A stretch of DNA of 64,000 nucleotides from an uncultured Gammaproteobacteria bacterium (lineage in GTDB: Bacteria; Patescibacteriota; Microgenomatia; Levybacterales; GWA1-39-11). The notes below the pieces were generated by a model that was not told where the DNA came from, ran no database searches, and was given only the letters and a program-made list of their open reading frames with translations. This document shows positions 30,395 to 63,173 of this stretch, piece by piece (within the stretch, counting starts at the first letter, position 1; each line of letters begins with the position of its first letter). The position numbers and the translations under genes are program-made. The DNA lies in the NCBI GenBank assembly GCA_964450885.1, contig CAYVFE010000001.1, positions 65,301 through 129,300 of the forward strand, in the 5' to 3' direction.

Positions 30395-30398
30395 ATTA

Positions 30399-33927: not shown

Positions 33928-33928
33928 A

Positions 33929-34567
33929 TTAGATTATTACGTTTTTTATATCTTTTGAATCAAAATTTAGATTTATTATGTCGTCGTTTAGGAGCTCATA
34001 AAACACTTTTATAAGTTCCTCGTGAGAAAGCTTTCTGGGAGCAAGCCCCATTCTTTCGATTTGCGACATTACAACGCTCGTCTTGGATAAAAGTGCTGCT
34101 TTTGCCTGATCCCCAAAATTAAGCTTCGCATTGGTCTTGTTGGGTTGAGCGGTGTTAGTTACCCCACCTTCCAGATAGGAGTAGGGAATGACGATATAGA
34201 TTTTTTTGTCCAAAAGTCCTTCTCCTTTAACAAGTTCCTGTATAAACTCCTTGTAGTACAGAAGGTGTTCTTTTATTTGGGGATGTTGGGTTGTTGAGAT
34301 TTTTTTGTCGAGATTGTCTATATAGCCTTCCATGTCGATTTTTTTCGAAACGATAAGTATCTGGATGGCAAAAGAAAGAGAATTGATAAGCGACATATAG
34401 CCATAGACTCTCGCGTTTTGCTCATCAGCAGACAGGAGGAAGAAGTTAACAGAAGACACGTCTATAAGCATGCACGCGCGTTTGTTTTTAAGCAGCACGA
34501 CATCGTCGACTATGTCAACAATTTCTGTGAAGCTTTGTGTTGTTGATTTTATATCTTTTTTCGCCAT
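33929..34567 (-). CDS. hypothetical protein resembling VirB4 N-terminal domain
   Basis: 212 aa. TQSFTEIVDIVDDVVLL...DVSSVNFFLLSADEQ parallels the VirB4 N-domain. Ends 1 nt before the VirB4 start. Confidence 0.4.
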   Translation of the reverse strand: MAKKDIKSTTQSFTEIVDIVDDVVLLKNKRACMLIDVSSVNFFLLSADEQNARVYGYMSLINSLSFAIQILIVSKKIDMEGYIDNLDKKISTTQHPQIKEHLLYYKEFIQELVKGEGLLDKKIYIVIPYSYLEGGVTNTAQPNKTNAKLNFGDQAKAALLSKTSVVMSQIERMGLAPRKLSHEELIKVFYELLNDDIINLNFDSKDIKNVII

Positions 34568-34569
34568 AT

Positions 34570-35670
34570 TTATTGCTGGACGGTGTTTCTGCCAAATAAT
34601 TCCTGTCTGAGCTTTTCTCTTTGATCGGTTGAGATAATTTCAAGTGGCTGGAATATTTCGTTATTCATTTCGATATCAATAGGGCTGAACTCATGAATGC
34701 GTCTGATGTCCTCAAGTAGTATCTGGTAGTTGCCTGCAGGAAGTGGTGTTGCAGATGAAAATTGCCCCAGTGCATTTGTCTTGAATGCTCTTACGGGGTT
34801 CCCTGTAGTATCGATGACCTCGACTATGATATTTGGTAAGACTTTCCCTCTTGCGTCTTTTACGATTCCCAGTACTACATTTGGGGTATCGGGAATCTGC
34901 GGGAAACCACTGGCGATCTGATTTTCTGGCGCGACAGATACTGCAGGAGTAGAGGGCATGCTGACAGTCTCTTGGGGGACAGGGATGGCTGGTGTTTCGA
35001 CTGGAGCAGGCATCGGTTGTTCTGCGACCGGTTCCTGAGCGGGCGCAGGTGTATATGCATCTGCCTTTATGGGCTCTGGGGAGCTGTGTGTTGGTGGTCT
35101 GACGATAACGCTTGGTTTTGTGTCCTCCTGAGGACTGCCAGTGTCGATGCTGCTCATCCCTGTGACTGGTGTCTGGGTATCATTGAATATTCCACTTATG
35201 GCATTTAGCTGGTCGCGTTCCTCCGCGTCAACTTTATAGGATGTGTTTTTTCTTACCAGCTGATTTAAGAGCAGTTGTTTCCTACTATCTTTTTGAGCAG
35301 GAGTGGGGCCGGCTGGAGCTTTCTGCATTTGCTGTGGGATGAAGTAGTCATGTAGGAGCGCTTCAGCACCTTTTTTCCGGAAGATATATCTGTTTTCTGC
35401 TGGTAATGCTTTCAAAAAGTTTATGAGCATAACATCCATTGGACGTCCTTCTATCGGCAGGAATGCAAGTCCTGCACCAAGTGACGCGATGACCATTATC
35501 GCTGGCCATTTGATCAGAAATGATATCGGCATGATGAAAAACACGCCACAAAGCGCCCCAGCTCCGAGGATGTACAGAAACTGTTTTACTGTAATTGAGC
35601 CTATGAGCCGAAATTTGAACCCAGTAACATCTTGAGGTATAGGATGATTTTCCATAAATAAGAGCACCAC
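34570..35670 (-). CDS. PrgI/VirB3-like membrane protein fused to Pro-rich linker and C-terminal domain
   Basis: N-terminus FKFRLIGSITVKQFLYILGAGALCGVFF with two TM segments, as in Gram-positive PrgI/TcpE. Pro/Ala-rich middle region. Confidence 0.45.
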   Translation of the reverse strand: MVLLFMENHPIPQDVTGFKFRLIGSITVKQFLYILGAGALCGVFFIMPISFLIKWPAIMVIASLGAGLAFLPIEGRPMDVMLINFLKALPAENRYIFRKKGAEALLHDYFIPQQMQKAPAGPTPAQKDSRKQLLLNQLVRKNTSYKVDAEERDQLNAISGIFNDTQTPVTGMSSIDTGSPQEDTKPSVIVRPPTHSSPEPIKADAYTPAPAQEPVAEQPMPAPVETPAIPVPQETVSMPSTPAVSVAPENQIASGFPQIPDTPNVVLGIVKDARGKVLPNIIVEVIDTTGNPVRAFKTNALGQFSSATPLPAGNYQILLEDIRRIHEFSPIDIEMNNEIFQPLEIISTDQREKLRQELFGRNTVQQ

Positions 35671-35771
35671 ACCATATCGATGTGGTGAATAAAGCGTATA
35701 ACGTGAAAATTTTTAATACAAGCGTATCAGAGTAGAGCAAACTATATGATAATTTGAGGCTAGTGTGAAAA

Positions 35772-37865
35772 TTAAGTAGCTTTACCTATTCCGGTTGCAG
35801 CAACTCCTACAGCTCCAGCGCCAACTGTGGCCACAGCGCCAGCGCCTATAATAGCGATTAGAATATAGATGAGCCATTTCATCTTCGAGTCTGGTTTTAT
35901 CCCGGAGGCCTCAAGGTTCTTTAGGACATTTCCTGCTTCTTTGGATTTTGCCAGGCCGCTTGCGAGTTGTCCTCGGAAGTTTTCCTCAAGCATACGCCAC
36001 TCGTCTTTGCTGAGTCCAAGCTTGTCGCTTCCGGGTACCCAGCCCTTGAGTTTGTCTTTAAGAGTCTTTGAAGCAAAGAAGTCTTTCATGAGTTTATTTC
36101 TGTAAGTGTCTGCATGTTTGTTGTATGCGTCATCAAGCCTCTTTTTTTGCTCTTCAGTAAGCCTATTAAGGTCGATATTCTCATAAGTTTCCCTTTCATA
36201 AAGATCCTCGAAAGCGCCTGGGATTGGATTGCCGCTTGCGTCAAGCTTCGGGATTTGAAGCTGCATCTCACGCAGAAGCAGCCTTTTAAGTCCGTCTTCT
36301 CCTTTATACGCAATGGTGAGCATATCTTCTTGAATTCTCACCGTGCTTACCGATTTTGTTCTGGTCTCTCTGTCAAATTTAATCCAGTTTTCTCTCATCG
36401 ACTCAGCTATCGCCTTGTCATCGGCAGTAATTCCTTCCTTCGCGTCCTTTTCTCGTCCTTTCTCGTCAAGTTCAGCTAGTTGTTCGTAGCGTTTCAAGAG
36501 TACTTCCTGCGCTGATTCTGAGAAGATGTTCTCAACTTCGTCTACCAAATCAGATTCAGCTTGAAGCCTAGCGTTGCGGCTGTCTCTCTCGTTCGTATTT
36601 GGATTCGCTCTTTTATCCGCTATTATCGTGTCTAGTTCTCTAATTCTGACTTGATTTTGGTAAAGCTCAGCAAGCTTTGCGCCTATCTCAGAATTGGCGG
36701 CTCCTGCAGTAGGGTATCTTCTGTCAAAGTCGACGAATTTATCGTAATCGGGACGATTTTGATTTACTGTATTCATCAGAGCATCATATTCGTTGCTAAG
36801 AGTTTCGTATTGGGAATACAGCTTATTGGCGGCATCTACTGCTGCTTGATTCGGAATAGCGTTCTTGTTCATTGTTGTAGGGATTTTCCCCTGATTCCAT
36901 CGTGCAAACGCTTCGTCAGTCCGGTTTTTTAGTTCCGAAATTTTTGAGAACTCAGCGTAGTGGGGCACTTTTTCCACAGTCAATTGGCGAATCTGTCGAA
37001 GAATTTGTTCTGGGGTCGCTCCATTTCCTATCGCATCCTCGATAGCTTTTTTTTCAGCAGGGTCAAGCGGTTGTCCGGTATCCGTCTCGATAGATTTGAC
37101 TATCTGATCGACTCCTTCCTGAGCCTTTGTTTTTGCAGATTTCTGTTCTTTCTCGGCATTCTTTAACTCGTCATCTTTTGCGACTTCTGGCAGCGCTTCG
37201 GCGCGTGCTGACAGCTCTCTAAACTTTGTAGCGATTGTTGTTCTGAGGCCTATTTCCCTGCCCAGGGTTTTTTCGATATATTTCCTTTTGTATTCTGGAT
37301 GCATTGAGGGGTCTGCTAGTTCCGGGAAGAGCGATTTTATATATCCGCTTGAGAGTAAGGCATCAAGCCCGGCTATTCTCTGCCTATCATATTCAGCTGC
37401 GCTTTTGATACTTGTATCACCCCTGGCAACTCTCGATCGGATGGTATCTGGTATGCTGATTCCGGTTCTTTCCGATTCTGCCAGGATGCTTGAGTATTGT
37501 AGAAATGCAGATGCTTGCTCTGCAGCTCTTTTTGCTCTTTCAAAGGACGCCTTTTCTGCAGGAGTTGCATTTGCTTTCGCTTCGACGAGATGGGTTGCTG
37601 GATTCTCTTCGGTTTCCCCAGCTCCGAATTTTAGCTCAAATGCATTTAGCTGAAGTCTACCAAAAGACGTCTCCCTCGTAGTTTCTGATGCCATTTGGAG
37701 ACCTTCTTTACCGCTCTTTCCATCTTTACGGAGCTGTTCTAAGTCCTTTTGGCGTTGAAGCTGCTCTGGGGTTATGCCTGGGAGATTTACGCTAGTGTCT
37801 CCCGCCTGCAGGACTTCTTTTGGTGTAAATTTTGGCGCTTCGGGCGCTGATGTTGCATCCGGCAT
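35772..37865 (-). CDS. long coiled-coil, C-terminally tail-anchored protein
   Basis: 697 aa, helical and charged, with a single C-terminal TM (WLIYILIAIIGAGAVATVGAGAVGVAATGIG). Confidence 0.45.
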   Translation of the reverse strand: MPDATSAPEAPKFTPKEVLQAGDTSVNLPGITPEQLQRQKDLEQLRKDGKSGKEGLQMASETTRETSFGRLQLNAFELKFGAGETEENPATHLVEAKANATPAEKASFERAKRAAEQASAFLQYSSILAESERTGISIPDTIRSRVARGDTSIKSAAEYDRQRIAGLDALLSSGYIKSLFPELADPSMHPEYKRKYIEKTLGREIGLRTTIATKFRELSARAEALPEVAKDDELKNAEKEQKSAKTKAQEGVDQIVKSIETDTGQPLDPAEKKAIEDAIGNGATPEQILRQIRQLTVEKVPHYAEFSKISELKNRTDEAFARWNQGKIPTTMNKNAIPNQAAVDAANKLYSQYETLSNEYDALMNTVNQNRPDYDKFVDFDRRYPTAGAANSEIGAKLAELYQNQVRIRELDTIIADKRANPNTNERDSRNARLQAESDLVDEVENIFSESAQEVLLKRYEQLAELDEKGREKDAKEGITADDKAIAESMRENWIKFDRETRTKSVSTVRIQEDMLTIAYKGEDGLKRLLLREMQLQIPKLDASGNPIPGAFEDLYERETYENIDLNRLTEEQKKRLDDAYNKHADTYRNKLMKDFFASKTLKDKLKGWVPGSDKLGLSKDEWRMLEENFRGQLASGLAKSKEAGNVLKNLEASGIKPDSKMKWLIYILIAIIGAGAVATVGAGAVGVAATGIGKAT

Positions 37866-37866
37866 A

Positions 37867-38241
37867 TTAGATTGAGTTCAGTTTTTCTCTTGTCGCATCA
37901 AGCGTGCTGGCTTCTTGTTTTTGAGTATCATTATCTTTGTATTTCAGATAAGTATCCTTGTAGACGGGCCATCTGTTTGCCAGGTCTTGCAAGAAAAATA
38001 ACATCGAATCTTCGCTATCTATCTTGTCCAGGGACTCAAGTATAAACTCTGCTGAGAATTGAGAGTCTTCATGTGAGAGGGTGCTTGTTTGAAGACCGGT
38101 AAGTAGAGCGTCATAGAGTTCGTTATAGAGATTATTCTTTTGTTCTTCCGAAACGCTGGTATTGTCCATATATAAACAATACGTCAAATCTAGTGGTTGT
38201 GTCAACGAATTAGAACGTAGGGTTGGTGATCTGACCGACAC
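37867..38241 (-). CDS. hypothetical acidic protein
   Basis: 124-aa ORF. Its 1-nt gap to the gene at 35772-37865 is seen; co-transcription with its neighbours is inferred. Confidence 0.35.
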   Translation of the reverse strand: MSVRSPTLRSNSLTQPLDLTYCLYMDNTSVSEEQKNNLYNELYDALLTGLQTSTLSHEDSQFSAEFILESLDKIDSEDSMLFFLQDLANRWPVYKDTYLKYKDNDTQKQEASTLDATREKLNSI

Positions 38242-38506
38242 CAGTGACTGATGCTATCAGATTGAGAATCGCAAAAGACAGTAGTATAAGAAGAAGTCCG
38301 ATTATCGCATAGGTAAGAGTTTTTTTAGCATTGTCTACCTCCTGTGGGTCACCTTTACTGGTCACGAACTTGAACCCCGCAAAGATTATAAGAAAGAGAG
38401 CGACGACGCCCGCAAAGATAAGCGCCCATTGTACGACATTTTTTATGACTATCGGAACACATCTGAGTGTGGCGACATCGCCTTCAAGACAGGAAGCCCA
38501 TTCCAT
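38210..38506 (-). CDS. T4SS pilin-like (VirB2/TrbC-like) protein, paralog 1
   Basis: 98 aa, two hydrophobic helices flanking GDPQEVDNAKK, then IIGLLLILLSFAILN. Confidence 0.55.
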   Translation of the reverse strand: MEWASCLEGDVATLRCVPIVIKNVVQWALIFAGVVALFLIIFAGFKFVTSKGDPQEVDNAKKTLTYAIIGLLLILLSFAILNLIASVTGVGQITNPTF

Positions 38507-38515
38507 ATAGAGTTA

Positions 38516-38944
38516 TTATTGTATTAATTCGTCGAGACGAGGCAGTGTTAGATTTGTAAGTCCTCCTTCTACTCCAAAAACTGTGAGCAGTACATTTAGG
38601 ATGAAGAAGGAAAGAAAGACTACAACAAGCCCTATGACGGCTGCGATTATCTGATTTCTTGCGGCTTCTACTTTAGAAGAATCTCCAGAAGATGTAATCC
38701 ATTTGATACCGCCTATTATAAGCCAGAGTAGAGCGATTATGACAGCTATGACGAAAAAGACTATGACTATGGCACCTATTACTGCGCCGAAATTCCCGTC
38801 ATTTATTTGACAGACGATATCGAACTGTCCGCCGGGGCAAAGGTTGATTGATGATCCTCCTGGAGGGGTTGAGGTCTGAGCATACGCAAGCTTCGGAAAA
38901 AGAAAGTATAACGGTGAAGAAAGGAGAGCAAATAGTCTTTTCAT
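38516..38944 (-). CDS. T4SS pilin-like protein with signal peptide, paralog 2
   Basis: 142 aa. Signal peptide ...KLAYA-Q, Cys-containing head, then SSGDSSKVEAARNQIIAAVIGLVVVFLSFFILN. Confidence 0.6.
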   Translation of the reverse strand: MKRLFALLSSPLYFLFPKLAYAQTSTPPGGSSINLCPGGQFDIVCQINDGNFGAVIGAIVIVFFVIAVIIALLWLIIGGIKWITSSGDSSKVEAARNQIIAAVIGLVVVFLSFFILNVLLTVFGVEGGLTNLTLPRLDELIQ

Positions 38945-38990
38945 AAGGTCTTATTAATTGTTATCAGCTTTTATTTCCTTTGTCAAGAAG

Positions 38991-39308
38991 TTATATGAAT
39001 TTGATGCCAAATATTCCGCCGAGGATGTTTATTATCGCAAACGCAAGAAGGGCAACTATCAGTCCCAAAACCGCAAAGATTATCTGTTTTCTCGCCTCAT
39101 CTACTCTTTGAGGGTCACCATTCGACTGAATCCAGCGGATCCCAGCCCAGATAAGATATCCGAGAGAGGCGAGGATCACGACTATCAAAAAAATCTGCAT
39201 TCCTACAGAGATTATCGTCTCAAGAGTATTTGCACCTCCGCCGGGAACGCCATCTGGGGCTTTCACCTCTCCATATCCTGGAATTTGTAGTTGTGCAAGC
39301 TGTTTCAT
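38991..39308 (-). CDS. T4SS pilin-like protein, paralog 3
   Basis: 105 aa with NGDPQRVDEARKQIIFAVLGLIVALLAFAIIN, the same motif family. Confidence 0.6.
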   Translation of the reverse strand: MKQLAQLQIPGYGEVKAPDGVPGGGANTLETIISVGMQIFLIVVILASLGYLIWAGIRWIQSNGDPQRVDEARKQIIFAVLGLIVALLAFAIINILGGIFGIKFI

Positions 39309-39311
39309 ATT

Positions 39312-40850
39312 TTATGGATTTGGCGGAGGAAACTCTATGTCGGAAACTGTTTCATCATCGACCATATCTACGCTCGTTTCATTTGTATTCTCCGGTTCGT
39401 TAAATCCAGGTATTTGTAGTATATCACCTGCGATAACTTGAAGAATAACGAATGAGAAAATGATAAAAAGTAGACCTATTATTGCAGCTGTGATAATCTC
39501 GCGGGCATGTTTTATCTTTTCGGGATCGCCGCGTGAAACCATGTAGTTATATCCACCGTATATTATAAGAAGCAGGGCAGCCACCCCTGCTATAGAGAGC
39601 ACATATGTGAAGATGCTAAGTACGAATTCGTCTAGGTCAAGCCCTATCGTACCCAGCGCGGTTTCAATCTTTGCGCAGTCGGCAGGATTTGTTACATCGT
39701 TTTCTCTTCCTGGTAATTGATGAAGAGGATCAGGGACGGCACCATCCTTTAGCTCGGCGCACGGGAGTCTGGTACCACCGCTAGAGAGCCCCAGTTCCAC
39801 GAAAAGCTGCGCCATGGAATTTAGATCTTTTCCCTCAGGATCTATTATGGGATCTCCACACACATTTGCTGTAGGGTCACTTCCTGGTATTCCGACATGA
39901 CAGTGAATTTCTGCGTAGACGAACCCCCCAAGACAGTCATCGTAGTTATGGGATTCATTTATCTGCTCACGAAGCCTAATTACATAATCTCCAGCTAGAG
40001 TAACCCCCTCTTCATCCGTCGGGAATACTTTTGTGACCTGTTCTCCTGGAGCCGAGAAGCTTATGCATGACTGGTTGTTTCCTGGATTTAGAATAGCTTG
40101 ATGTAAGACATCATTTCTCATCCCCGGTCCGTCTACGATGATCTGGTAGTTATTCCTATTCTTTTTATCGCCATTTCCGTTATTGCGGATTTTGGGAGAC
40201 GATACATTAACTGTGAATTTTCCACCAGGAGTAAGATTATTGCTGGGGCTTACCGTCATCTCGGGCACTCCATGATTTACAAAAAACCCCGCTACTGTAT
40301 GGAGTATGAATACATCGCCTGCCTTCTGATAAAGAGAGAGGAGATAGACACTGCCTGGATAAAAATAGTCTTTGTCGTTATTTTCACCGTTTTCGTCTCC
40401 TGCGCACTCCTTGCTTCCATTTCCATTAGTAAATCTTTCGGGGGTCTTTAATTTTGAGTCTCCGTCTCCACAGACTATGATGGTCTTGGATTCGTCGTCG
40501 AATTTATAGCGTTGAAGAGTTTTCTCGTCGACCTGGTCGTCTGTGAGTCCGCGTGTAGCTTGTCCTACGTACTCCAGGTTGCCTTCAAATATCCCATCTT
40601 TTACGTCATCATCGTCTATACATAAATCCTGTTCCATACATATATATAGATCGTTAACACTTAGGGAATCGATGAGGTCTCCTTGGAAGGTGACACTTAC
40701 TGTGCTCAGGTAGTCATTTATTTCCTCGAGAGGAGGCTTCACTGTAAAAGTTGATTCCTGAGCATGGGAATTATTCGGAAATAGGAGAAATAGAGAAAAA
40801 AGCGCGAAAAATAAAACAATAAGCCTTCTTGTCATATTCCTATCATACAC
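39312..40850 (-). CDS. large secreted Cys/Asp/Gly-rich ectodomain fused to C-terminal T4SS pilin-like domain (candidate tip adhesin or minor pilin)
   Basis: 512 aa with a signal peptide and a roughly 400-aa ectodomain. C-terminus ...SRGDPEKIKHAREIITAAIIGLLFIIFSFVILQ is the pilin motif. Confidence 0.55.
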   Translation of the reverse strand: MYDRNMTRRLIVLFFALFSLFLLFPNNSHAQESTFTVKPPLEEINDYLSTVSVTFQGDLIDSLSVNDLYICMEQDLCIDDDDVKDGIFEGNLEYVGQATRGLTDDQVDEKTLQRYKFDDESKTIIVCGDGDSKLKTPERFTNGNGSKECAGDENGENNDKDYFYPGSVYLLSLYQKAGDVFILHTVAGFFVNHGVPEMTVSPSNNLTPGGKFTVNVSSPKIRNNGNGDKKNRNNYQIIVDGPGMRNDVLHQAILNPGNNQSCISFSAPGEQVTKVFPTDEEGVTLAGDYVIRLREQINESHNYDDCLGGFVYAEIHCHVGIPGSDPTANVCGDPIIDPEGKDLNSMAQLFVELGLSSGGTRLPCAELKDGAVPDPLHQLPGRENDVTNPADCAKIETALGTIGLDLDEFVLSIFTYVLSIAGVAALLLIIYGGYNYMVSRGDPEKIKHAREIITAAIIGLLFIIFSFVILQVIAGDILQIPGFNEPENTNETSVDMVDDETVSDIEFPPPNP

Positions 40851-40874
40851 TTAATGAAAATTTCATTGCAAATT

Positions 40875-42200
40875 CTACGAACTAAGCTTATAGCCAGTGC
40901 CTTTTATGGTTTTGATGAATGTAGGATTTGCAGGATCAGTTTCAATCTTTTTTCTGAGCCTGTGCATTATCTGATCAAAAGCCTGATCACTGACGCCTTC
41001 CTGGGTCTTCTGGTCCGTCCACACGGCATTTATGAGCTCGTTTTTACTGAGTACCTTGTCTTTATTCTCAAGCATAAATTTTAAGAGCTTAAATTCTGAC
41101 GATGAAAGTAATTGGGTGATCGGATTGTTTGCCTTAAGGATTTCATTTCTCTGGGCATCGTACTTAATCGATTCGTCGACATCGATTTTTTTGCTTTCGA
41201 TAAAGTCTACAAGTAGGGGAATCGACAGTTTTTTTCCTACCACAAGACCTGTTTTTGTGAGATATTTTTCTGAAAGGTTCTCAAAATCTTTATTTTTCAA
41301 TGCCAGCTTTTCGCTGGGAAGCAGGCTTTGCCAGACTTCACCTAGGGCACTTATTATAGTAGGCTTATCGAGGAGATATTTTTTAATGTCAGTTATTTTC
41401 TCGTCTTCCGTGACAAATTTTTCGTAAGCAAGCTTTGTCAGCTTTGAATGCCCCCCTGTTAGGTCCAGAATTTTTTCTGCGGTATCCTTTCCTAGAGACT
41501 TTCTGGACATCTTTTCTATGTATTTTGTCCTAAAGGAGATTGCGATAGGATCATAAATTGCGATATAGATTTCATTTCCTGTAACTATATCTGAAAAATC
41601 AGTAAGTATGTTTATGTCCACGGTTTCATCGAGCGGCCTTTTAAGTGAAAATATGGCTCCAAATCTATACTTTGCCAGATTCCTAAAAGTCTTAAGGTTG
41701 GCAAAGAAGTCTTCGGTCAGGTTAGGTGCGATCGTGTCAAACCTATCAAAGAGCAGGATCAGTGAGAGTTTTTTTTCGATAGTCAGAAATTCAATCGCTT
41801 TTTTTAAGAACTGCATCATCAGAAATTCGTCATTCATCGAGATTGCTTCTTGAAGAAGGGATCTTACCTTCGTGGACTCCTCCAAAAGTTGCCTTTCGCT
41901 CAAAGAAAATGCGATGGAAGAAAAGATGAGTTTTATTATGTCTATGTGATCTCTTCCCTTTGCCTCTGCTGAGTCTATATAGACAAAATGCATCAATTTC
42001 TCGTACGTTTTCAAGTGATATTTTCTGGCGTCTGTGTTGTATGCGAGGAGTCTGAGGAGGTTGTTTTTCCCCGTTCCCGGAAGTCCTATGATTTGCGCAG
42101 AAAGCCCTTTTTTAAGAAAGGTCAGATATTGGTGAATCTCTTTTTCGCGGGAATTTTCAGGATATAACGATTCAAAGTATTTTAGTGGTGTAAGTGTCAT
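40875..42200 (-). CDS. P-loop ATPase fused to C-terminal OmpR/PhoB-type winged-helix DNA-binding domain
   Basis: Walker A-like GLPGTGKNN near the N-terminus. C-terminal trans_reg_C pattern (ELINAVW...DQIMHRLRKKIE...IKTIKGTGYKL). Confidence 0.6.
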   Translation of the reverse strand: MTLTPLKYFESLYPENSREKEIHQYLTFLKKGLSAQIIGLPGTGKNNLLRLLAYNTDARKYHLKTYEKLMHFVYIDSAEAKGRDHIDIIKLIFSSIAFSLSERQLLEESTKVRSLLQEAISMNDEFLMMQFLKKAIEFLTIEKKLSLILLFDRFDTIAPNLTEDFFANLKTFRNLAKYRFGAIFSLKRPLDETVDINILTDFSDIVTGNEIYIAIYDPIAISFRTKYIEKMSRKSLGKDTAEKILDLTGGHSKLTKLAYEKFVTEDEKITDIKKYLLDKPTIISALGEVWQSLLPSEKLALKNKDFENLSEKYLTKTGLVVGKKLSIPLLVDFIESKKIDVDESIKYDAQRNEILKANNPITQLLSSSEFKLLKFMLENKDKVLSKNELINAVWTDQKTQEGVSDQAFDQIMHRLRKKIETDPANPTFIKTIKGTGYKLSS

Positions 42201-49385: not shown

Positions 49386-49838
49386 ATGCATTGTCCATAC
49401 TGTAATAGTGACCAAACAGAAGTAGTAGAGACCAGGGTTTCTGATGAAGGAGTAAATATAAGACGCAGACGTCTTTGCAGTTCGTGTAGAAAACGTTTTA
49501 CGACCTATGAGAGGATTGAAAATATTACTCTTTTAGTGAAGAAGAAGGACAAGAGGACAGAGCAGTTTAGCCGCGAAAAATTAAAAGGAGGGATACTTAA
49601 ATCTTCTGAGAAGACTACCGTAACACCAAAGAACGTTGAAGATATAGTCGACGATGTCGAACGCGAACTTTTAGGAGGAGAGACTGTCGAAGTAGATAGC
49701 ACCAAAATCGGGAGGATCGTTGCTACAAGACTTAAGAAAATCGACAAAATCGCCTATATAAGATTTGCAAGCGTCTTCAAGCACTTTGTCGACGTAGAGG
49801 ACTTCGAGAAAGAGGTCAAAAAACTAATAAAAAATTAA
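49386..49838 (+). CDS. nrdR: transcriptional repressor NrdR
   Basis: N-terminal zinc ribbon (CPYC...CSSC) and ATP-cone. Confidence 0.85.
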   Translation: MHCPYCNSDQTEVVETRVSDEGVNIRRRRLCSSCRKRFTTYERIENITLLVKKKDKRTEQFSREKLKGGILKSSEKTTVTPKNVEDIVDDVERELLGGETVEVDSTKIGRIVATRLKKIDKIAYIRFASVFKHFVDVEDFEKEVKKLIKN

Positions 49839-49839: not shown

Positions 49840-52245
49840 ATGGATACACAACTGGACGGAATAAGAAAAAAAGTATTTTTAGATAGATACGCTTTAAAAG
49901 ATAAAGAAGGGACGCTTATCGAAAGCACTCCTGAGCAGATGTGGAGAAGGGTTGCAAAAGGAATAGCGCGCATCGAAAAAGTAAAAGATAGAGAAAAGTG
50001 GGAGGAAAAATTCTACAATGTCTTAACAGACTTCAAATTCGTTCCCGGAGGAAGAATCCTTTCGGGTGCTGGGACAGGATATGAGGTCACATACTTCAAC
50101 TGCTTCGTAATACCGTCTCCTAAAGACTCGAGAGAAGGAATCATAGATAGTCTTAAGCAATTAGTTGAGATCCAAAGCCGCTCCGGCGGAGTTGGCCTCA
50201 ATCTTTCATCTCTTCGACCCCGCGGTGCGAGGGTTAAAAAAGTTAATGGAACCTCGTCTGGCCCTGTCACCTGGGCGGGGCTTTTTTCATATGCGACGCA
50301 CGACGTCGTGCAGCAAGGCGGAACCCGCAGGGGTGCTACTATGCTTATGCTCTGGGATTGGCATCCTGATATCGAGGAGTTTATTACTGTTAAAGAGGAC
50401 CTGACGAAAATAAATGGAGCCAACCTATCAGTATGCGTAAGCGACGCCTTCATGAAGGCGGTAAAAGAAGACGGAGACTGGGATCTGGTGTATCCAGATC
50501 TTTCGGATCCTGATTATGATGAAAAATGGGACGGGGACATAACAGAATGGAAAGAGTCTGGAAGGAAAGTAAAACTATATAAGACCGTCAAAGCGCGGGA
50601 GCTTTGGGATAAGATCTGCACAGCTGCATGGAAATCGGCAGAGCCAGGGCTTCATTTCCTAGAGCGTTCAAACAAGCAAAGCAACACCTGGTATTTCGAA
50701 AAATTAATCGCGACAAATCCATGTGGAGAGCAGCCTTTGGGCGGATGGGCAGTATGTAATCTCGGAGCGATGAACTTGGCCCAGTATGTAAACGATAAGC
50801 AATTTGACTACGAGAATTTTTCACAGGATGTAAAGGTTGCTATGAGGCTTTTGGACAACGTGATCGATGATACGTATTACTTTTTTGAGCAAAACGAAAA
50901 ATGCGCCAAGGAAATCCGCAGGACAGGGTTGGGAATTATGGGTATCGCCGACGCGCTTATAAAAATGGAGCTTCGTTATGGAAGTGATGAGGCCCAAATC
51001 GTAATCGAAAAGATATTCAAGACGCTCCGCGACAACGCATATGATGCATCCTCAGATATAGCAAAAGAAAAAGGATCTTTTCCAAAATTTGATAAAGAAA
51101 AATATCTTCAGGGATATCATATAAAAGCTCTTCCTAAAAGAATCCGCGAAAAGATTGAGACGCAGGGGATAAGAAATGCAGTCCTTCTAACCATCGCTCC
51201 GACAGGAACCACGAGCTTGGTATCTGGAGTATCGTCCGGAGTGGAGCCTGTTTATGAGTTTGTCTTCAAGAGAAAGTGGAGAGGTGGAGAAGAGACTTTA
51301 TATCATCCACTATTCGAGCAATGGAAGAAAGAGAATCCAGACGCGGAAGTTCCAGAGTATTTTGTCTCAGCAAATGACCTGACGCCTATCGAACACGCAA
51401 AGGTGCAGGCTGTTGCGCAGAAATATATAGACTCGTCGATCTCAAAGACAGTCAATGCACCGAACGCACATACGATAGAAGACGTAAAGACTCTTTATAT
51501 GATGGCTTATGACATGGGGCTAAAAGGGATTACCTATATGAGAGACGGTTCGCGTCAGGGAGTCTTGGAGAGAATCGACGACAAGAAAAAAGAAGAAGAG
51601 GTCAAGAAACAGCCGATTCTAAAAAGACCATCAGTCCTGCACGGATTTACAGTAGAGAAAAAGACTCCTATCGGAAATACTTTCGTGACTATAAATCAGG
51701 ATGAGGATGGAAATCCATTCGAAGTATTTATGACCATGGGAAAGTCCGGATCCGATGTCGCAGCGATGGCGGAGGCTTTGGGCCGCACGATATCTCTTAT
51801 CCTCCGAATGCAAAGCCCTGTGGAGCACCGTGAGCGCATGCGTCAGATCGTTGCACAGTTGTCAGGCATAGGAGGACAGCGCAGCGTGGGATTTGGGGAA
51901 AATCGTGTCCGTTCACTTCCGGATGCAGTCGCAAAAACACTTGCCGAGGTCTATGAATTCAGGGTAAACGGCCGTGTAGAGGATAAGAATCCTGCAGGCG
52001 CAAATGGTAATGGCCACTCAAATGGTAATGGGAATGGTAACGGTTCTTACAAGAAGTTGACGTCATCTGCTCCAGTAGATATGCCTCTGGAGGATAATTC
52101 TGGTGTAGAGCCATCTTTGCAGACGATCGCTCCGATGTCAGAAGAAGCACATAACGGAGATATATGTCCAGAGTGTGGATCCGCAAGTTTCGTACATGAA
52201 GAAGGCTGCGCCAAGTGCTATGCATGCGGCCACGCCGAATGCTAG
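49840..52245 (+). CDS. nrdJ: class II adenosylcobalamin-dependent ribonucleotide reductase
   Basis: 801 aa. NPCGEQPL active-site motif. C-terminal Zn-ribbon (CPECGS...CAKCYACGH). GNGHSNGNGNGNG linker repeat. Starts 1 nt after nrdR. Confidence 0.8.
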   Translation: MDTQLDGIRKKVFLDRYALKDKEGTLIESTPEQMWRRVAKGIARIEKVKDREKWEEKFYNVLTDFKFVPGGRILSGAGTGYEVTYFNCFVIPSPKDSREGIIDSLKQLVEIQSRSGGVGLNLSSLRPRGARVKKVNGTSSGPVTWAGLFSYATHDVVQQGGTRRGATMLMLWDWHPDIEEFITVKEDLTKINGANLSVCVSDAFMKAVKEDGDWDLVYPDLSDPDYDEKWDGDITEWKESGRKVKLYKTVKARELWDKICTAAWKSAEPGLHFLERSNKQSNTWYFEKLIATNPCGEQPLGGWAVCNLGAMNLAQYVNDKQFDYENFSQDVKVAMRLLDNVIDDTYYFFEQNEKCAKEIRRTGLGIMGIADALIKMELRYGSDEAQIVIEKIFKTLRDNAYDASSDIAKEKGSFPKFDKEKYLQGYHIKALPKRIREKIETQGIRNAVLLTIAPTGTTSLVSGVSSGVEPVYEFVFKRKWRGGEETLYHPLFEQWKKENPDAEVPEYFVSANDLTPIEHAKVQAVAQKYIDSSISKTVNAPNAHTIEDVKTLYMMAYDMGLKGITYMRDGSRQGVLERIDDKKKEEEVKKQPILKRPSVLHGFTVEKKTPIGNTFVTINQDEDGNPFEVFMTMGKSGSDVAAMAEALGRTISLILRMQSPVEHRERMRQIVAQLSGIGGQRSVGFGENRVRSLPDAVAKTLAEVYEFRVNGRVEDKNPAGANGNGHSNGNGNGNGSYKKLTSSAPVDMPLEDNSGVEPSLQTIAPMSEEAHNGDICPECGSASFVHEEGCAKCYACGHAEC

Positions 52246-52432
52246 ATAGCTAGTTGCTAGCTATGTGAATTTAAGATAATATATCAAAGGTTAATTTAGG
52301 TAAGTAGGGTGTGATTCCCTCTCAGTGCCGCTACCGTAAAGACGGAAAACGAATTAACTTTTACGCTCGAGCAAGCATTTCTACAACCTAATCCAGACTG
52401 CAGAAATCCTTCTCGAGTAGAGGGATTTTTTT

Positions 52433-52987
52433 ATGGCTATTTATACAAAAAAAGGAGATAAAGGTAGGACATCTTTGGGAAATGGTGTTCGTGTGTGGAA
52501 AGACAGCAGGCGTGTGGATGCCTACGGTACAATAGACGAATTAAATGCGCTGCTGGGAGTTATCGAATCAGAGTTAAGCCTAATCAATAGGAAGTATGCA
52601 AAGTACGTAAGAGAAATCATAATAACTGTCCAGAACGACCTCTTTTGCATCGGTTCTTATCTTTCTAATCCTGCAAATCGTGAACTTATCTCCCATCTGT
52701 CTGAAAACACTCTAGAGTTTGAGAAAAAAATAGATGAGATGACGCAAAAGCTTCCTGAGCTCACGAACTTTATTCTTCCTGGAGGGACCATCGTTGGTGC
52801 GAATCTGCAGATAGCAAGAGCTGTCAGTCGTCGTGCTGAGCGAAAGCTGATAAGTCTTATCCGCCGCGAGAAAGTTAATCCTGATGTGGTCCAATATATA
52901 AATAGACTTTCAGATCTATTTTTCACGCTATCGCGTTTCACGAACTTTGAGGCAAAAAAGAAAGAGATTATCTGGAAAAAAAGATAA
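52433..52987 (+). CDS. PduO-type ATP:cob(I)alamin adenosyltransferase
   Basis: N-terminus MAIYTKKGDKGRTSL...RVDAYGTIDELN, the canonical PduO/MMAB signature. Confidence 0.75.
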   Translation: MAIYTKKGDKGRTSLGNGVRVWKDSRRVDAYGTIDELNALLGVIESELSLINRKYAKYVREIIITVQNDLFCIGSYLSNPANRELISHLSENTLEFEKKIDEMTQKLPELTNFILPGGTIVGANLQIARAVSRRAERKLISLIRREKVNPDVVQYINRLSDLFFTLSRFTNFEAKKKEIIWKKR

Positions 52988-55159: not shown

Positions 55160-55546
55160 GGGGATGTATTGATTCGACAGGATTTGTACTTTAAAAACTG
55201 CAAGCCGACAATGATACTAGTCGTAAACGCGTATCAAAAATACATGCTAAACCTAGTTTTAGCGGCGTAAAGCGATTTTTCGCTGATCGTATGCCAACAG
55301 CTAACCCTGTTGGTTATATGCCAGCTTTCGCATAAGCCTGTTCGCTCTCACTCGCTTCTCACACGAGAGAACGAGCATAAACCTGTGAGAAAACTTAACG
55401 GGATTGGTTGAACCGTTTCGTATAAAACCTTTGTCTGGCTTTTCCAGTTAGTAGGATCGAAATTAGACGAGATTAAATACTAACTAAGCTTGTAGATGTT
55501 TAGGAGACAAGTTTTGGACGCCGGGTCACACTCGGCCATCTCCACA
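55160..55546 (+). ncRNA. ssrA: tmRNA
   Basis: 5' GGGGATGTATTGATTCGACAGG. The acceptor stem pairs with 3' CATCTCC-A-CA, and the T arm GCCGG-GTCACAC-TCGGC is adjacent. Internal ORF ...GCG TAT CAA AAA TAC ATG CTA AAC CTA GTT TTA GCG GCG TAA gives tag AYQKYMLNLVLAA. Confidence 0.7.
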
Positions 55547-55548
55547 TT

Positions 55549-56001
55549 TTAGATCAATTCTTTGAGTTCGCGTTCCTGTACGCGCTCTATAGCAGCTCTT
55601 TTGCTGTCTTTTCTTTTTTCGTAAGACTTTTTGCCTTTTGAGATCGCCACTTCTACTTTAAAATTTCCTTTACTTATGAATATCTTGAGAGGAACTAGGG
55701 TATAGTTACCAGTTTCGAGTTTGCTTTTTATCGCTTGAATTTCTTTTCTATGAAGCAGTAATTTTCTACTTCTGTCTTCCTGGTAGTTATCGATTCTTGA
55801 GAATTTGTAGGGGAAGATCTTTGCATTCACCAGAAAAGCCTCGCCACCTATGATTTTCACATAGGACGAGTTGAGGTCGACGTGGCCAGAACGTACAGCC
55901 TTTACCTCTGATCCTAAAAGGACGATTCCTGCGACCATTTTTTCATTTATCTGAAAATTTTTAGGTGCAGTTTTGTTAAATATCTTTATATTATCTTGCA
56001 T
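55549..56001 (-). CDS. smpB: SsrA-binding protein
   Basis: 150 aa with typical SmpB sequence and a basic C-tail. Convergent with and abutting the tmRNA 3' end. Confidence 0.85.
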   Translation of the reverse strand: MQDNIKIFNKTAPKNFQINEKMVAGIVLLGSEVKAVRSGHVDLNSSYVKIIGGEAFLVNAKIFPYKFSRIDNYQEDRSRKLLLHRKEIQAIKSKLETGNYTLVPLKIFISKGNFKVEVAISKGKKSYEKRKDSKRAAIERVQERELKELI

Positions 56002-58930: not shown

Positions 58931-60625
58931 CTACTTTTTCTCGATGTTGAAGAAAGCGAATCCGCTTTGGGGGATAGATAGTCTTCCTGGCGCACGCAGG
59001 TTAAAGGCTTTCTTGAATTCTTCCCCAGACATAGATACTCCATTTATGGTGACACTGTTCGTGTTTCCGTTTCCTTGAGTTACAGTAACACTTGTTGCCT
59101 GGCTTATTCCTCCTCTTCCAGATACTAAATTCTTTAGCTCATCCATGCTGTATGGATTTCCTCCCCAGCAAGAAGTCGTAACAGGTGTTATCCGCCCAGT
59201 ATCTATGCCGTCGCTATTTTTCAGTGCTATCGCAGCATTTACGATATCTGCCATTTCGTTAGGGCTAAGCCATGGATTTGAACGTCCGCATGTGTCGCCT
59301 GAGTTGCTATACCCCTGCCTCCACCAGGCTTTATATAACCAGGGAGAGCCCCCGATTTTGTCATATGCTCTGTCTATAAAATCTCCCCCACCTTTTCCAT
59401 CGGTCGTATCCCAACCTATCGGACTTGCAAAACCACCGTGAGTCGAAGCGTAATAGGTGACGACATCTTCAAGGACCTTCCCGCGCGTGTCCTCGACTGC
59501 TTGTCGCCATGCATCGGGAGGATTATCAGCTTTACCAGAATTAAATACCTGGCACGCCTCATTTGTACAAATTTCAAGACCGTCCCTTTTGTAGCGATAA
59601 GCATAAGTTCTTGCTGCAATCGCTTGGGCTTTTAGCGCTTCAGGATGCCAACTTGATGGCATTTCTGCGATTCCCAAAAGATAGCGCCCCTCGAAATCCA
59701 TTTCTCCGTAACCTGCTACTTTTATATTGCCTCCTGTATCTTTGTCAACAGGTTCTTTGCCATAATATGCGTTAAGAATTTGATTTACGTTTTGACCGCT
59801 TTGTGCTCTTCCCCGCGCTCCATATTGACTCATACCCTTTCTATGTGTATATCCTCCGAATGAAAAAACAGCAAAATAACCACCAGGCGCGGATTCGTTA
59901 AAGCCTTTGATGGAGGAGAGATATTCATCTGCCAGCTCGCCCGATCCTATAGATGCAGTAAATCCTCCTGAGCGGGCATTTATAATCTCGTTTTGTCGGG
60001 CAGACAGGTCTGCTATCTGACCTGTCAGGGTGGACTGGTATTCCTTGGCTCCCAATACGACCTTTTCTATCTCGTCGCGTTCTTTGTCTAACGCAGATTT
60101 GGCACTGGCCAGCATCTTTTCTTCGCTTTCGAGCTTTGTCCTTCTTTCTTCTAGGTCGACAAGCTTCAGGGCAGTACTTGTTATTGCTGATTTATCACGT
60201 TCAGCATCCCGTTTTTGATATGTCAGAAACTTTATGAATTCCGATGGATCGGCGCTTGAAAAGAAAAGTAGAAGCGGAGAAAGAGAATAAGTTTTTATAT
60301 AGGAGTTTTTGACTATCGCATTAAAGTTCTCTTGCTGCTCCCCAAGTTCTTCGTATCCTTGGGCGATATTTTCTCTTTTTACGGCAAGATCTGCTTCTAT
60401 GGCGTTAACCCTTGCTTCGATATTTGAAAGCCGGGATTTTAAGTTATTCAGCTGTCCCTCGAGCGGAACTGTAGCTTTTTTTGAGGCATCAAGTGCTTGT
60501 TGAAGCTCTGCAATTTCCTTTGTTATCTCATCGAGCTCATCAGAATAAACTGGAGAAAGGTTAGTATAAAAAAGTGCCCACAGAGGGATAAGAGTCATAA
60601 GAATTATGATCAGGAATTTTTTCAT
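58931..60625 (-). CDS. SpoIID/LytB domain protein with N-terminal coiled coil
   Basis: Signal/TM, a long coiled-coil, then the SpoIID/LytB motif GYTHRKGMSQYGARG. Confidence 0.65.
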   Translation of the reverse strand: MKKFLIIILMTLIPLWALFYTNLSPVYSDELDEITKEIAELQQALDASKKATVPLEGQLNNLKSRLSNIEARVNAIEADLAVKRENIAQGYEELGEQQENFNAIVKNSYIKTYSLSPLLLFFSSADPSEFIKFLTYQKRDAERDKSAITSTALKLVDLEERRTKLESEEKMLASAKSALDKERDEIEKVVLGAKEYQSTLTGQIADLSARQNEIINARSGGFTASIGSGELADEYLSSIKGFNESAPGGYFAVFSFGGYTHRKGMSQYGARGRAQSGQNVNQILNAYYGKEPVDKDTGGNIKVAGYGEMDFEGRYLLGIAEMPSSWHPEALKAQAIAARTYAYRYKRDGLEICTNEACQVFNSGKADNPPDAWRQAVEDTRGKVLEDVVTYYASTHGGFASPIGWDTTDGKGGGDFIDRAYDKIGGSPWLYKAWWRQGYSNSGDTCGRSNPWLSPNEMADIVNAAIALKNSDGIDTGRITPVTTSCWGGNPYSMDELKNLVSGRGGISQATSVTVTQGNGNTNSVTINGVSMSGEEFKKAFNLRAPGRLSIPQSGFAFFNIEKK

Positions 60626-60667
60626 GCAACTTAATTATAACAGGGATAATAAAGTCGTGCGGTGAGG

Positions 60668-60739
60668 TGGGCATGCTTGGAATTGAACCAAGGACATCCA
60701 TTTTATAAGAATGGCGCTCTACCCCTGAGCTACATGCCC
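60668..60739 (-). tRNA. tRNA-Ile (anticodon UAU)
   Basis: Reverse complement folds as GGGCATG-TA-GCTC-AGGGGTA-GAGC-G-CCATT-CTTATAA-AATGG-ATGTC-CTTGG-TTCAATT-CCAAG-CATGCCC-A. Anticodon TAT. Confidence 0.65.
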
Positions 60740-60785
60740 GCAATAACCCAAAAGTTATACGTTGCTTATTATAACAAAGATTTAT

Positions 60786-63173
60786 CTATCTGCGAGGGAC
60801 CCCTGGAATAGAGCTTGATGTAGGCGGTGGAATATCCAGGTCTGATCGGGAATTTATCTCTTCTTCGACGATATCCCGCGCCCGTCCATACTTGAGTCTT
60901 GAGAGCTCTTTAATAAGCTCTGCGACTCTAGGGTTTTCTCTTGCTTTCTCTTCCTCTATATCACGAGTCAGATCCATAGAGAATGGGGTTGTTGGCTCTC
61001 CTCCTACAAGAGTTTTTACATATGCATGGAAACGTTCGACATTTATAAGGTCTGCTTCTGCAAATGTGGGTTGAAATTCATGTTGAAGATAATTTGCATC
61101 ACTGACACCTACTCTAAACGAAGCTATAGTTCCTACATTTCCAAATATGGCATTTTTTACTTCTTCATCAATTTGTCCTATGAATTGATTTGCGACTGTC
61201 AAATTTAGTCTATATTTTCGCGCCTCAGAGAGTATTTGCGCAAAGTCGGGGGTAGCAAAATTCTGGAACTCATCGACATAGAGGAAGAAGTCACGGCGTT
61301 TATCCTGAGAAATATCTTGTCGACTCATGGCAGCAACTAGGAGTCGTGGTACCATAAGAAGCCCTAAAAAGCTTGAGTTTTCTTCTCCAATTTTACCTTT
61401 TGCGAGGGAAATTAGAAGTATCTTACCTTCATCCATGACTTGCCGGAAATCAAATGAGCTCTTGCTTTGTCCTATCATATTCCTCATCATTTTATTTGTG
61501 ACGAACCTTCCGAATTTAGAAGTTATATAGTCTAGGACTTCGGATTTATGAAAGTCTGATGTCTGTGCGATTTGATCTGTCCAGTAGCGTCTAATGATAG
61601 GATCAGACACTTTGGGTAGGAGTTTTTGAACATAGTTTTGGTCAGTAAGCACGCGAACAAGTTCAACAAAAGTCGTACCCGGTTCGCTCATAACAGTAAG
61701 CATCGCATTGCGGACTGCATGCTCAAATCTAGGACCAATTATCCCGGTTCTTTGTGGGTCATAGAGCTTGTAGAAAAGATTGATGATAGAACCAGTGACA
61801 AAATGTTTTTGGTCCTCAGTCTCAGCGTCAAGCATATTTATACCCATAGGACGCTCTGTGTCTGATGGGTCAAAAAGGATTACGTCCTCAGCTCTTTCAG
61901 GTGGGATAAGAGGTAATATCTGATCGATAGTATCATGTGGATCTATAAAACATACTCCCTCACCATTTCTGATGTCCTGTAGGATCATATCTTTTAGAAA
62001 TTCTGATTTTCCGACACCAGTTTTTCCTATGATGTACATGTGACGTCTTCTGTCATCGCGTTCGATAAATACTTTTTTCTCCTGACTTCTATATATGCTT
62101 TTTCCAAGATACAGTCCTGTCGTAGGCATTTTTGCAGGCGCTGGTGCAGTGCGGGCTGCAAGCCAGTTGATATGAGGATTTTCGATTGCCTTGTTAGGGA
62201 AATGGAAAATTGCTGCTAATTCTTCGGGATTGAGAACAGACCCTTTTTTGAGAAGCGGGACATGGCGGTAGATAAAATCTACCATCATCATGCCTTTAAA
62301 AAATTTCGGCGAGTATTTAGTGAATGAATTGAAAGACGAAAACTGAGTGAAGGCACCAACTATATTTCCTAGGTGTGCCTCAGCTGCTTCTTTGCTGGAT
62401 GACACAGTGACTATCCTTATATAAGTGGAGAATCCTGGTTTTGAGATCTTATTTTCGATTGCTTCAAGCTCTTTCTGGTCTGTTGAATAACTTGCGGTCT
62501 CGGGGTCTGCTTCATTTTTCTTTTCTTTTGAGATGTGGGCCCGTCCAGCCTTACTCCATTTGGAATCTGCGGGAGTTATTAAGATTTGTATCGCAGCAGA
62601 TTCTCCTTCCTGCATTTTTCCTAAAGTACTGACGACAGTTGCCATAGGATCTACTGCAAGGTCCTTATAGAATTTGATCGGCAGATAATCTGATTTTTTG
62701 AGATGAAGACTTGTGAAGGCTACTTTTCCGTTGTCGGTCTCGAAGATATTATAATCTTCCATTTCCTGAATATGGGCGTCGGGGTAAGCTCCATTTATCT
62801 GTTTTTCAACCATATCTTGAAGTTTTCTGGGAACTCCAACATAAAATCTGATGTCTCCGGGCTTTGCTACAATCTCGAAAGTAATGCTATCTGGAACCTT
62901 TGAAAAACTCAGCATGCCCTCAGCTGTAGAAAGAGATGCAAAACTTGAAAAGAGCTGTTCTGCCGCATCTATCTTTATTTCGTTATCGCGGGGTAATTTT
63001 ACTTCAATAAGGACAGATTCAAGCGATCTTTTATGCCTGTCTCGGGCCCGAAACCAGACTCCGGACCCGAAAACTGATGCTATAGCACCAGCAACTATAA
63101 GACCGGAGATAATAATCCCGATTACTAGCGTTTGAATAAGTTGGATTATGCCTGAAGCATCTAGTAGTTCCAT
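60786..63173 (-). CDS. VirD4/TraG-like type IV coupling protein (T4CP) ATPase
   Basis: 795 aa. Two N-terminal TM helices, Walker A GKTGVGKSEF, Walker B FFLYVDEF, and a C-terminal RKYRLNLTVANQFIGQ block typical of T4CPs. Confidence 0.7.
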   Translation of the reverse strand: MELLDASGIIQLIQTLVIGIIISGLIVAGAIASVFGSGVWFRARDRHKRSLESVLIEVKLPRDNEIKIDAAEQLFSSFASLSTAEGMLSFSKVPDSITFEIVAKPGDIRFYVGVPRKLQDMVEKQINGAYPDAHIQEMEDYNIFETDNGKVAFTSLHLKKSDYLPIKFYKDLAVDPMATVVSTLGKMQEGESAAIQILITPADSKWSKAGRAHISKEKKNEADPETASYSTDQKELEAIENKISKPGFSTYIRIVTVSSSKEAAEAHLGNIVGAFTQFSSFNSFTKYSPKFFKGMMMVDFIYRHVPLLKKGSVLNPEELAAIFHFPNKAIENPHINWLAARTAPAPAKMPTTGLYLGKSIYRSQEKKVFIERDDRRRHMYIIGKTGVGKSEFLKDMILQDIRNGEGVCFIDPHDTIDQILPLIPPERAEDVILFDPSDTERPMGINMLDAETEDQKHFVTGSIINLFYKLYDPQRTGIIGPRFEHAVRNAMLTVMSEPGTTFVELVRVLTDQNYVQKLLPKVSDPIIRRYWTDQIAQTSDFHKSEVLDYITSKFGRFVTNKMMRNMIGQSKSSFDFRQVMDEGKILLISLAKGKIGEENSSFLGLLMVPRLLVAAMSRQDISQDKRRDFFLYVDEFQNFATPDFAQILSEARKYRLNLTVANQFIGQIDEEVKNAIFGNVGTIASFRVGVSDANYLQHEFQPTFAEADLINVERFHAYVKTLVGGEPTTPFSMDLTRDIEEEKARENPRVAELIKELSRLKYGRARDIVEEEINSRSDLDIPPPTSSSIPGVPRR

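Follow-up and report, generated by a model that had tools for sequence, protein, structure and literature searches.

A functional minor tRNA-Ile whose UAU anticodon is written in the chromosome, and which would read AUA as isoleucine without the conversion of a CAU anticodon to lysidine, is in our opinion very probably an ancient possession of the Microgenomates, passed on by vertical inheritance. The gene was analysed in a window of 64 kb (the term denotes the whole stretch of DNA under study), which is a piece of a Levybacteria-like chromosome from the Microgenomates branch of the CPR/Patescibacteria. The proposal is carried by the integrity of the gene itself, by its conservation, anticodon included, at the same place in related genomes, and by the usage and meaning of the AUA codon in the window.

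An intact tRNA-Ile gene with a UAU anticodon

ARAGORN found three tRNA genes in the window, one of them a tRNA-Ile with anticodon tat (60666..60739, minus strand), and the Rfam tRNA model (RF00005) was matched over positions 1-71 of 71, running from 60739 to 60668, with 71.5 bits against a gathering score of 29 (E = 1.2e-13) and no non-canonical pairs flagged in the stems. The MFE fold of the 72 nt is a cloverleaf (-24.8 kcal/mol, z = -2.25) in which UAU occupies positions 34-36 of the 7-nt loop CUUAUAA. From the acceptor stem to the anticodon arm the molecule reads GGGCAUG UA GCUC AGGGGUA GAGC G CCAUU CUUAUAA AAUGG, and from the variable region to the 3' end AUGUC CUUGG UUCAAUU CCAAG CAUGCCC A, which gives a 7-bp acceptor stem, D, anticodon and T arms, U33, a T loop of the GGUUC type and no intron. 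A tRNA with a genomic TAT anticodon had been proposed here by the first-pass annotation, and ARAGORN, Rfam and the cloverleaf fold all agree with it, the Rfam match coinciding exactly with the coordinates that it gave. The two outcomes that it had named as fatal, another anticodon register or a pseudogene, are ruled out by ARAGORN, Rfam, the MFE fold and covariation, and the locus is thus confirmed as a real, intact tRNA-Ile gene with a UAU anticodon (Table 1).

Table 1. Features of the 64-kb window referred to in the text, with positions counted from its first nucleotide.
Feature	Position	Strand	Basis or remark
tRNA-Ile gene, UAU anticodon genomically encoded	60668..60739	minus	ARAGORN, Rfam RF00005, MFE fold, covariation
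T34-A35-T36 anticodon of the tRNA-Ile gene	60706-60704	minus	
Discriminator A73 of the tRNA-Ile gene	60668	minus	
CC 3' of the discriminator, then T	60666..60667	minus	sequence read
Candidate extended -10 element TGtTATAAT	60768..60776	minus	sequence read; ends 29 nt upstream of tRNA position 1
VirD4/TraG-like coupling-protein ATPase	60786..63173	minus	Pfam DUF87, TraG-D_C, TrwB_AAD_bind
SpoIID-domain protein, downstream neighbour of the tRNA	58931..60625	minus	Pfam SpoIID, 1e-18
TruB-family pseudouridine synthase (Psi55)	24279-25094		
Type-IV-secretion-like cluster	29800-41000	minus	adjoins dnaA-dnaN
VirB4/TraG P-loop ATPase of this cluster	31642-33927		
PrgI-like protein of this cluster	34570-35670		
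T4SS pilin-domain protein of this cluster	38516-38944		
T4SS pilin-domain protein of this cluster	39312-40850		
Large ORF, 1301 aa	42194-46099	plus	no Pfam match at E <= 1e-5
Large ORF, 757 aa	46115-48388	minus	no Pfam match at E <= 1e-5
NrdR gene	49386-49838		upstream of the ribonucleotide reductase gene
Ribonucleotide reductase	49840-52245		flanks the riboswitch
AdoCbl-II (B12) riboswitch	52288-52360	plus	37.4 bits, just over gathering score
PduO-type cobalamin adenosyltransferase	52433-52987		flanks the riboswitch
tmRNA	55160-55547	plus	Rfam, 104.7 bits
smpB	55549-56001	minus	convergent with the tmRNA, which abuts it

Since the discriminator is followed by CC and then T, the CCA end of the window tRNA is only partly encoded and would have to be completed by a CCA-adding enzyme; the full CCA is encoded in only 12 of 67 orthologues. 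Of the elements by which isoleucine tRNAs are recognized in E. coli (PMC9976931), the window tRNA matches A73, A35, U36, A37, C4-G69 and U12-A23. The last two, together with C29-G41, are minor determinants defined for the E. coli IleRS only (the 12-23 pair is printed as U12-G23 in the source), and at 29-41 the window tRNA has A-U; among 44 orthologues, C-G occupies 4-69 in 31 and U-A occupies 12-23 in 42. When E. coli tRNAs are compared over the full length, the rRNA-operon tRNA-Ile comes closest, but the match is weak (73% identity, E = 0.2). Charging of the tRNA-Ile(UAU) by IleRS is predicted, as is t6A at A37.

A consensus scan found no full -35/-10 promoter upstream of the tRNA, and the candidate extended -10 element listed in Table 1 was identified by reading the sequence. 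The motif TGnTATAAT also stands upstream of the tRNA in a related locus with an inverted copy of the gene (L006). This would suggest an autonomous promoter, and we infer that the tRNA may form its own transcription unit starting from this element. The tRNA is inverted relative to its VirD4-like neighbour in 14 of 65 loci (L001, 6156-6230, L006, 8342-8416, and 12 others), which include the window's closest relatives, and the upstream motif is kept in both orientations examined (the window and L006). This arrangement suggests small local inversions of what would be an autonomous tRNA transcription unit.

Genomic setting and conservation among relatives

The gene content of the window (dnaA-dnaN, dnaG, rpoD, truB, an NrdR/ribonucleotide-reductase unit, tmRNA with SmpB and a type-IV-secretion-like cluster) identifies it as chromosomal DNA near the replication origin. 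Its GC content is 41.9% and even across the tRNA region, and the description of the genome as low in GC, made in the first-pass annotation, does not hold, as this value is not especially low. The same annotation placed the tRNA next to a VirD4-like gene, and this adjacency is correct, the tRNA lying 46 nt downstream of that gene, which is its upstream neighbour on the same strand; taken as the sign of a mobile element, on the other hand, the neighbour fails, being a core gene and a conserved partner in synteny. The VirD4-like protein has >5000 homologues, the best 120 of which are 68-93% identical to it and, where the source is named, come from Candidatus Levybacteria and other Patescibacteria, a breadth that marks a core gene of the CPR lineage and not a mobile element.

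For the study of conservation, the 80 related loci aligning best with the VirD4-like protein were taken from contigs representing one genome per species. Their copies of the protein share 59-75% identity with that of the window, and the loci derive from Levy-, Gottesman-, Woese-, Shapiro-, Curtiss- and Pacebacteria. In 66 of them ARAGORN called a tRNA-Ile(tat) on the downstream side of the VirD4-like gene, these loci belonging to Levy-, Gottesman-, Woese-, Shapiro- and Curtissbacteria, at a median distance of 342 nt (65 loci) and on the same strand as that gene in 51 loci and the opposite strand in 14. Seven of the 14 loci without the tRNA have <1.2 kb of downstream sequence and are therefore uninformative. 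The rarity of genomic TAT anticodons, as asserted when the gene was first noted, is real among described bacteria (genes of this kind are recorded in tRNADB-CE for 19 bacterial species; PMC4013482) but does not extend to this lineage.

When 44 distinct orthologues were aligned, compensatory double changes were present in 19 of 21 pairs, the consensus was a cloverleaf and C32-U33-U34-A35-U36-A37 was invariant in all 44, while A73 was found in 67 of 67 orthologues. Metagenomes were scanned with a 37-nt anticodon-arm pattern in which position 34 was left free, and this position was T in 119 of 119 and C in none of the matches listed, so that every copy of the tRNA, 186 among the matches listed, has T34. 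No CAT tRNA occupies the syntenic site in any of the 80 related loci; a recent C-to-T mutation of a CAT gene was considered and rejected, there being no CAT version in these loci or among the 119 metagenome matches listed. Such a pattern, which goes well past what chance would give, is the signature expected of a functional tRNA with its anticodon under strict purifying selection across a deep radiation, and judging from these comparisons the tRNA(TAT) belongs to the lineage as such and is neither an isolated mutation nor the cargo of a mobile element.

That the tRNA might instead be the cargo or attachment site of an integrated conjugative element, with the VirD4-like gene as its marker, or else a decaying pseudogene, is suggested by its position beside a VirD4/TraG-like ATPase gene and by the fact that tRNA genes are common integration sites. 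We regard this as extremely improbable, given that the neighbour is a core gene, that the tRNA is syntenic in most relatives, that GC content is even, that Pfam revealed no integrase among the neighbours of the tRNA, and that neither a blastn comparison of the locus with 50,697 phage records (which bears on a phage origin) nor a search of IMG/VR viral contigs for the anticodon-arm pattern returned a match; a pseudogene is contradicted by stems that are all perfect and covarying.

Several other features of the window and of the related loci were recorded. The type-IV-secretion-like cluster beside dnaA-dnaN is separate from the VirD4-like gene, and the window also contains the two large ORFs listed in Table 1. 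The B12 riboswitch is flanked by the genes for ribonucleotide reductase and cobalamin adenosyltransferase. The tmRNA was detected by Rfam, while ARAGORN made no tmRNA call in the window and in L006 called one with a long tag peptide; in L006, too, the ORF after the tRNA begins with a signal-peptide and coiled-coil N-terminus resembling that of the SpoIID-domain protein. Species-representative MAGs carrying the Patescibacteria-type locus are often titled 'uncultured Gammaproteobacteria' or 'uncultured Pseudomonadales' (L001-L003, L012, L018, L024 and others) and in other cases Methylomirabilota or Limnocylindrales, record titles that appear to be taxonomically wrong.

Usage, meaning and decoding of AUA

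In the 55 long ORFs of the window isoleucine is encoded by 646 ATA, 503 ATC and 402 ATT codons, which makes AUA the commonest of the three, at 33.9 per 1000 codons, and bears out the AUA-rich genome supposed in the first-pass annotation. Its share of isoleucine, 41.6% in this count and 41.5% in a second one with a stricter ORF cut-off, equals the expectation from composition (39.4%, from four-fold third positions), and AUA is therefore not avoided in the window. Essential genes are no exception, with a share of 50% in dnaA, 53% in dnaN and 53% in smpB; it is >50% in the SpoIID-like gene and lower (11%) in rpoD. Usage falls in the class termed 'high' in a published survey (>10 per 1000, where 4.9 is given for E. 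coli and 39 for Borrelia burgdorferi; PMC12514573), a class that also includes TilS-dependent bacteria such as B. burgdorferi. The 80 relatives have a median of 16 per 1000 (23.5% of isoleucine), which puts the window at the upper extreme, and among those having the tRNA(TAT) the values range from 4 to 31 per 1000, a spread wide enough to indicate that the tRNA alone does not set codon usage. Two loci have no syntenic tRNA(TAT) and very low AUA (L069, BOKX01000001.1, BroJett032, and L072, PFDH01000017.1, Pacebacteria, at 2.3 and 3.2 per 1000 codons respectively, 4-5% of isoleucine); these may be lineages that decode AUA differently.

The meaning of AUA was examined, in a way that avoids circularity, through a codon-by-codon alignment of the VirD4-like gene and 79 homologues. 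Window ATA positions are occupied in the homologues by ATT (33%), ATC (18%), ATA (12%) and ATG (4%), thus by an isoleucine codon in 63% and by ATT or ATC in 51%, and window ATC positions by ATT (39%), ATC (18%), ATA (10%) and ATG (4%). At window ATG positions ATG accounts for 50%, ATT for 7% and ATC for 4%, with ATA outside the ten commonest codons. The ATA and ATC profiles being essentially alike, AUA means isoleucine. Its reassignment, for example to methionine as in many mitochondria, or the charging of the UAU tRNA with an amino acid other than isoleucine, could be imagined on the grounds that a UAU anticodon is in principle able to read AUG as well as AUA; this is scarcely credible, as the alignment rules reassignment out and A73, A35, U36 and A37 fit isoleucine identity (PMC9976931).

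In the mechanism that we propose, U34 would form a Watson-Crick pair with the third-position A of AUA, and AUA would be decoded as isoleucine; with T34 encoded and AUA read in this way, conversion of CAU to lysidine by TilS is unnecessary for tRNAIle(UAU), and TilS could not act on it. The gene would be kept beside the core VirD4-like ATPase gene, probably under its own extended -10 promoter, and its product would be the main decoder of AUA, the availability of which would explain why a codon that is the most used for isoleucine in the window organism is not avoided. Misreading of AUG by U34 would be prevented either by an unmodified U34 together with discrimination by the ribosome or by a modification of U34.

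Whether tRNAIle(UAU) is also the only AUA decoder, tilS and tRNAIle2(CAU) having been lost as in Mycoplasma mobile, is a proposition to which we give an even chance, and the wider one, that the whole Microgenomates radiation has replaced the TilS/lysidine system with a genomically encoded tRNAIle(UAU), is tentative and falls a little short of that. Loss of tilS, or else another strategy of wobble modification, had been suggested in the first-pass annotation. The relevant searches covered the window and 199 loci, a positionally biased sample of ~1.8 Mb, in which no TilS-like ORF with an SGGxDS PP-loop was found (the regular expression matched only GuaA-like and unrelated proteins) and no IleRS gene, a scan of long ORFs for KMSKS/HIGH motifs returning only Trp/Tyr-tRNA synthetases of ~330 aa. 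The 84 tRNA(CAT) genes in the loci, again from a positionally biased sample, fall into two classes, initiator-like and elongator-Met-like. A tilS-hpt pair is frequent before ftsH. In three relatives (L052, L056 and L068) ftsH is preceded by a Trp/Tyr-tRNA synthetase gene instead, an arrangement that is uninformative for the absence of tilS.

A real possibility, if one that we hold to be somewhat less than even, is that TilS and a tRNAIle2(CAU) converted to lysidine are kept and that tRNAIle(UAU) serves as a second, supplementary AUA decoder, a state through which lineages pass midway in the evolutionary model of Taniguchi et al. Such redundancy would accord with the presence of tilS in ~98% of annotated bacterial genomes (PMC12514573) and with the fact that some bacteria carry both LAU and UAU tRNAs (PMC3575796), but a spare tRNA would be expected to be lost or mutated in some lineages, and yet 66 genome loci and all 119 metagenome matches listed, from deeply diverged groups, have T34 without exception. 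The presence of only two tRNA(CAT) classes among the 84 copies and the gene preceding ftsH in the three relatives also point away from redundancy, all of these points being weak and positional.

A further alternative, which we consider rather unlikely, concerns the state of U34, which might be modified enzymatically, for example to pseudouridine or another 5-substituted uridine, in a manner that blocks the reading of AUG. Eukaryotic tRNAIle(UAU) has pseudouridine at 34 and 36, with Psi36 helping to prevent misreading (PMC9976931), a haloarchaeal mutant tRNAIle(UAU) carries cnm5U (PMC3895270), and the invariant C32, U33 and A37 would be compatible with a recognition site for a modifying enzyme. 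In M. mobile, however, the one bacterial case to be chemically analysed, U34 is unmodified (PMC3575796), and the neighbourhood of the gene offers no candidate for such an enzyme. The TruB-family enzyme of Table 1 is the window's sole pseudouridine synthase.

Two observations concern the tRNA(CAT) genes themselves. A metagenome contig of 1.1 kb (L179, 395-830, minus strand) carries three tandem tRNAs, the outer two being a tRNA-Ile(TAT) and an initiator-like tRNA(CAT). Between them stands a tRNA(CAT) with a CUCAUAA loop and the acceptor ACUCCCG, a candidate Met or Ile2 tRNA, which is the only CAT tRNA among the loci to combine an Ile2-like loop with a GGUUCAAGUCC T arm. In these Microgenomates the initiator-like tRNA(CAT) departs from the canonical form and occurs in about 31 copies among L001-L199 (for example L016, 9894-9963, plus strand; L015, 10179-10248, minus strand; and L010, 11904-11973, minus strand). 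It is 70 nt long, begins with CGCGGGG or UGCGGGG, and has a short D arm (GUGUA..GCAC) and a T loop that reads CGCAACU instead of UUCRAnY. For ARAGORN it is a tRNA-Met, while the Rfam tRNA model gives no match even at E <= 1, against 62.9 bits for the elongator-type tRNA(CAT) beside it.

Relation to known systems and significance

The closest known parallel is the tRNAIle2(UAU) of M. mobile, which was characterised biochemically by Taniguchi et al. in 2013 and functions with an unmodified U34, an adaptive Arg865 in IleRS and a ribosome that itself discriminates, tilS being absent (PMC3575796). Both are bacterial tRNAs with a genomic TAT anticodon and an A37 suitable for t6A in a small, reduced genome, and in both AUA would be read by direct U34:A pairing, as deduced here from sequence alone. 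M. mobile has been demonstrated to lack tilS, to leave U34 unmodified and to have Arg865 in its IleRS, at the position aligned with W905 of the E. coli enzyme, whereas for the lineage of the window the resemblance lies in the TAT gene; M. mobile, in turn, is an isolated case within the Mollicutes, whereas the tRNA described here is conserved and syntenic across a CPR radiation. Species of Bifidobacterium and Neorickettsia without tilS possess a eukaryote-type IleRS (PMC3575796) and, as is proposed for the organism of the window, are bacteria thought to read AUA without lysidine by means of tRNAIle(UAU); the type 2 IleRS is the enabling factor proposed for them, while neither the window nor the loci contain an IleRS of any kind.

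With the canonical tRNAIle2(CAU) the window copy shares the role of a minor isoleucine tRNA for AUA, together with A73, A37, the 7-nt loop and C4-G69, but the canonical gene has CAT and its product is the substrate of TilS, as opposed to the T34 of all 186 copies among the matches listed here. Eukaryotic cytoplasmic tRNAIle(UAU) has the same anticodon in the same CUUAUAA loop; its genes contain an intron that is needed for pseudouridylation, whereas the window gene is intronless, with no Pus1-like enzyme in evidence. A B. subtilis strain in which tilS is deleted survives with a tRNAIle1 suppressor changed from G34 to U and thus carrying UAU (Koehrer et al. 2014, PMC3919564), which demonstrates that the body of a bacterial isoleucine tRNA with UAU can sustain AUA decoding without lysidine, as proposed here; the suppressor, though, is a laboratory product derived from the major tRNAIle(GAU), whereas the window gene is natural, dedicated and, in our reading, ancient.

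Bacterial tRNAIle(UAU) was thus known before, and a 2026 preprint speaks of 'rare cases' (10.64898/2026.02.03.703510); notable here is that an entire CPR radiation appears to have fixed the gene and to use AUA without avoidance. No description of tRNAIle(UAU), tilS or lysidine in CPR, Patescibacteria or Microgenomates was found in the searchable literature, where the clade-wide syntenic conservation of this tRNA therefore appears to be undescribed, although tRNA databases surely contain tRNA(TAT) genes of Microgenomates.

In practical terms, annotation pipelines and tools for the codon usage or expression of CPR genes should expect frequent AUA, and the pair formed by tRNA(TAT) and the VirD4-like gene can serve as a synteny marker for Microgenomates contigs, many of which are wrongly titled as to taxonomy. 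The discrimination of AUA from AUG is among the few places where the bacterial code hangs on one essential modification enzyme, TilS. Eukaryotes do not have it, and in bacteria it is regarded as nearly universal, with exceptions known from scattered single species. If TilS has indeed been replaced throughout the Microgenomates, they would, with thousands of species, far exceed in size any other bacterial clade that decodes AUA without lysidine; AUA would have been freed from its usual avoidance, up to the point of becoming the commonest isoleucine codon, and it would take adaptations of IleRS and the ribosome throughout the clade, or else an unknown modification of U34, to keep AUG and AUA apart. 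A deep CPR clade, rich in species, that hard-codes UAU would constitute a natural experiment in how IleRS and the ribosome cope with U34, in whether loss of TilS accompanies genome reduction, and in the relaxation of codon usage once a Watson-Crick decoder of AUA is at hand.
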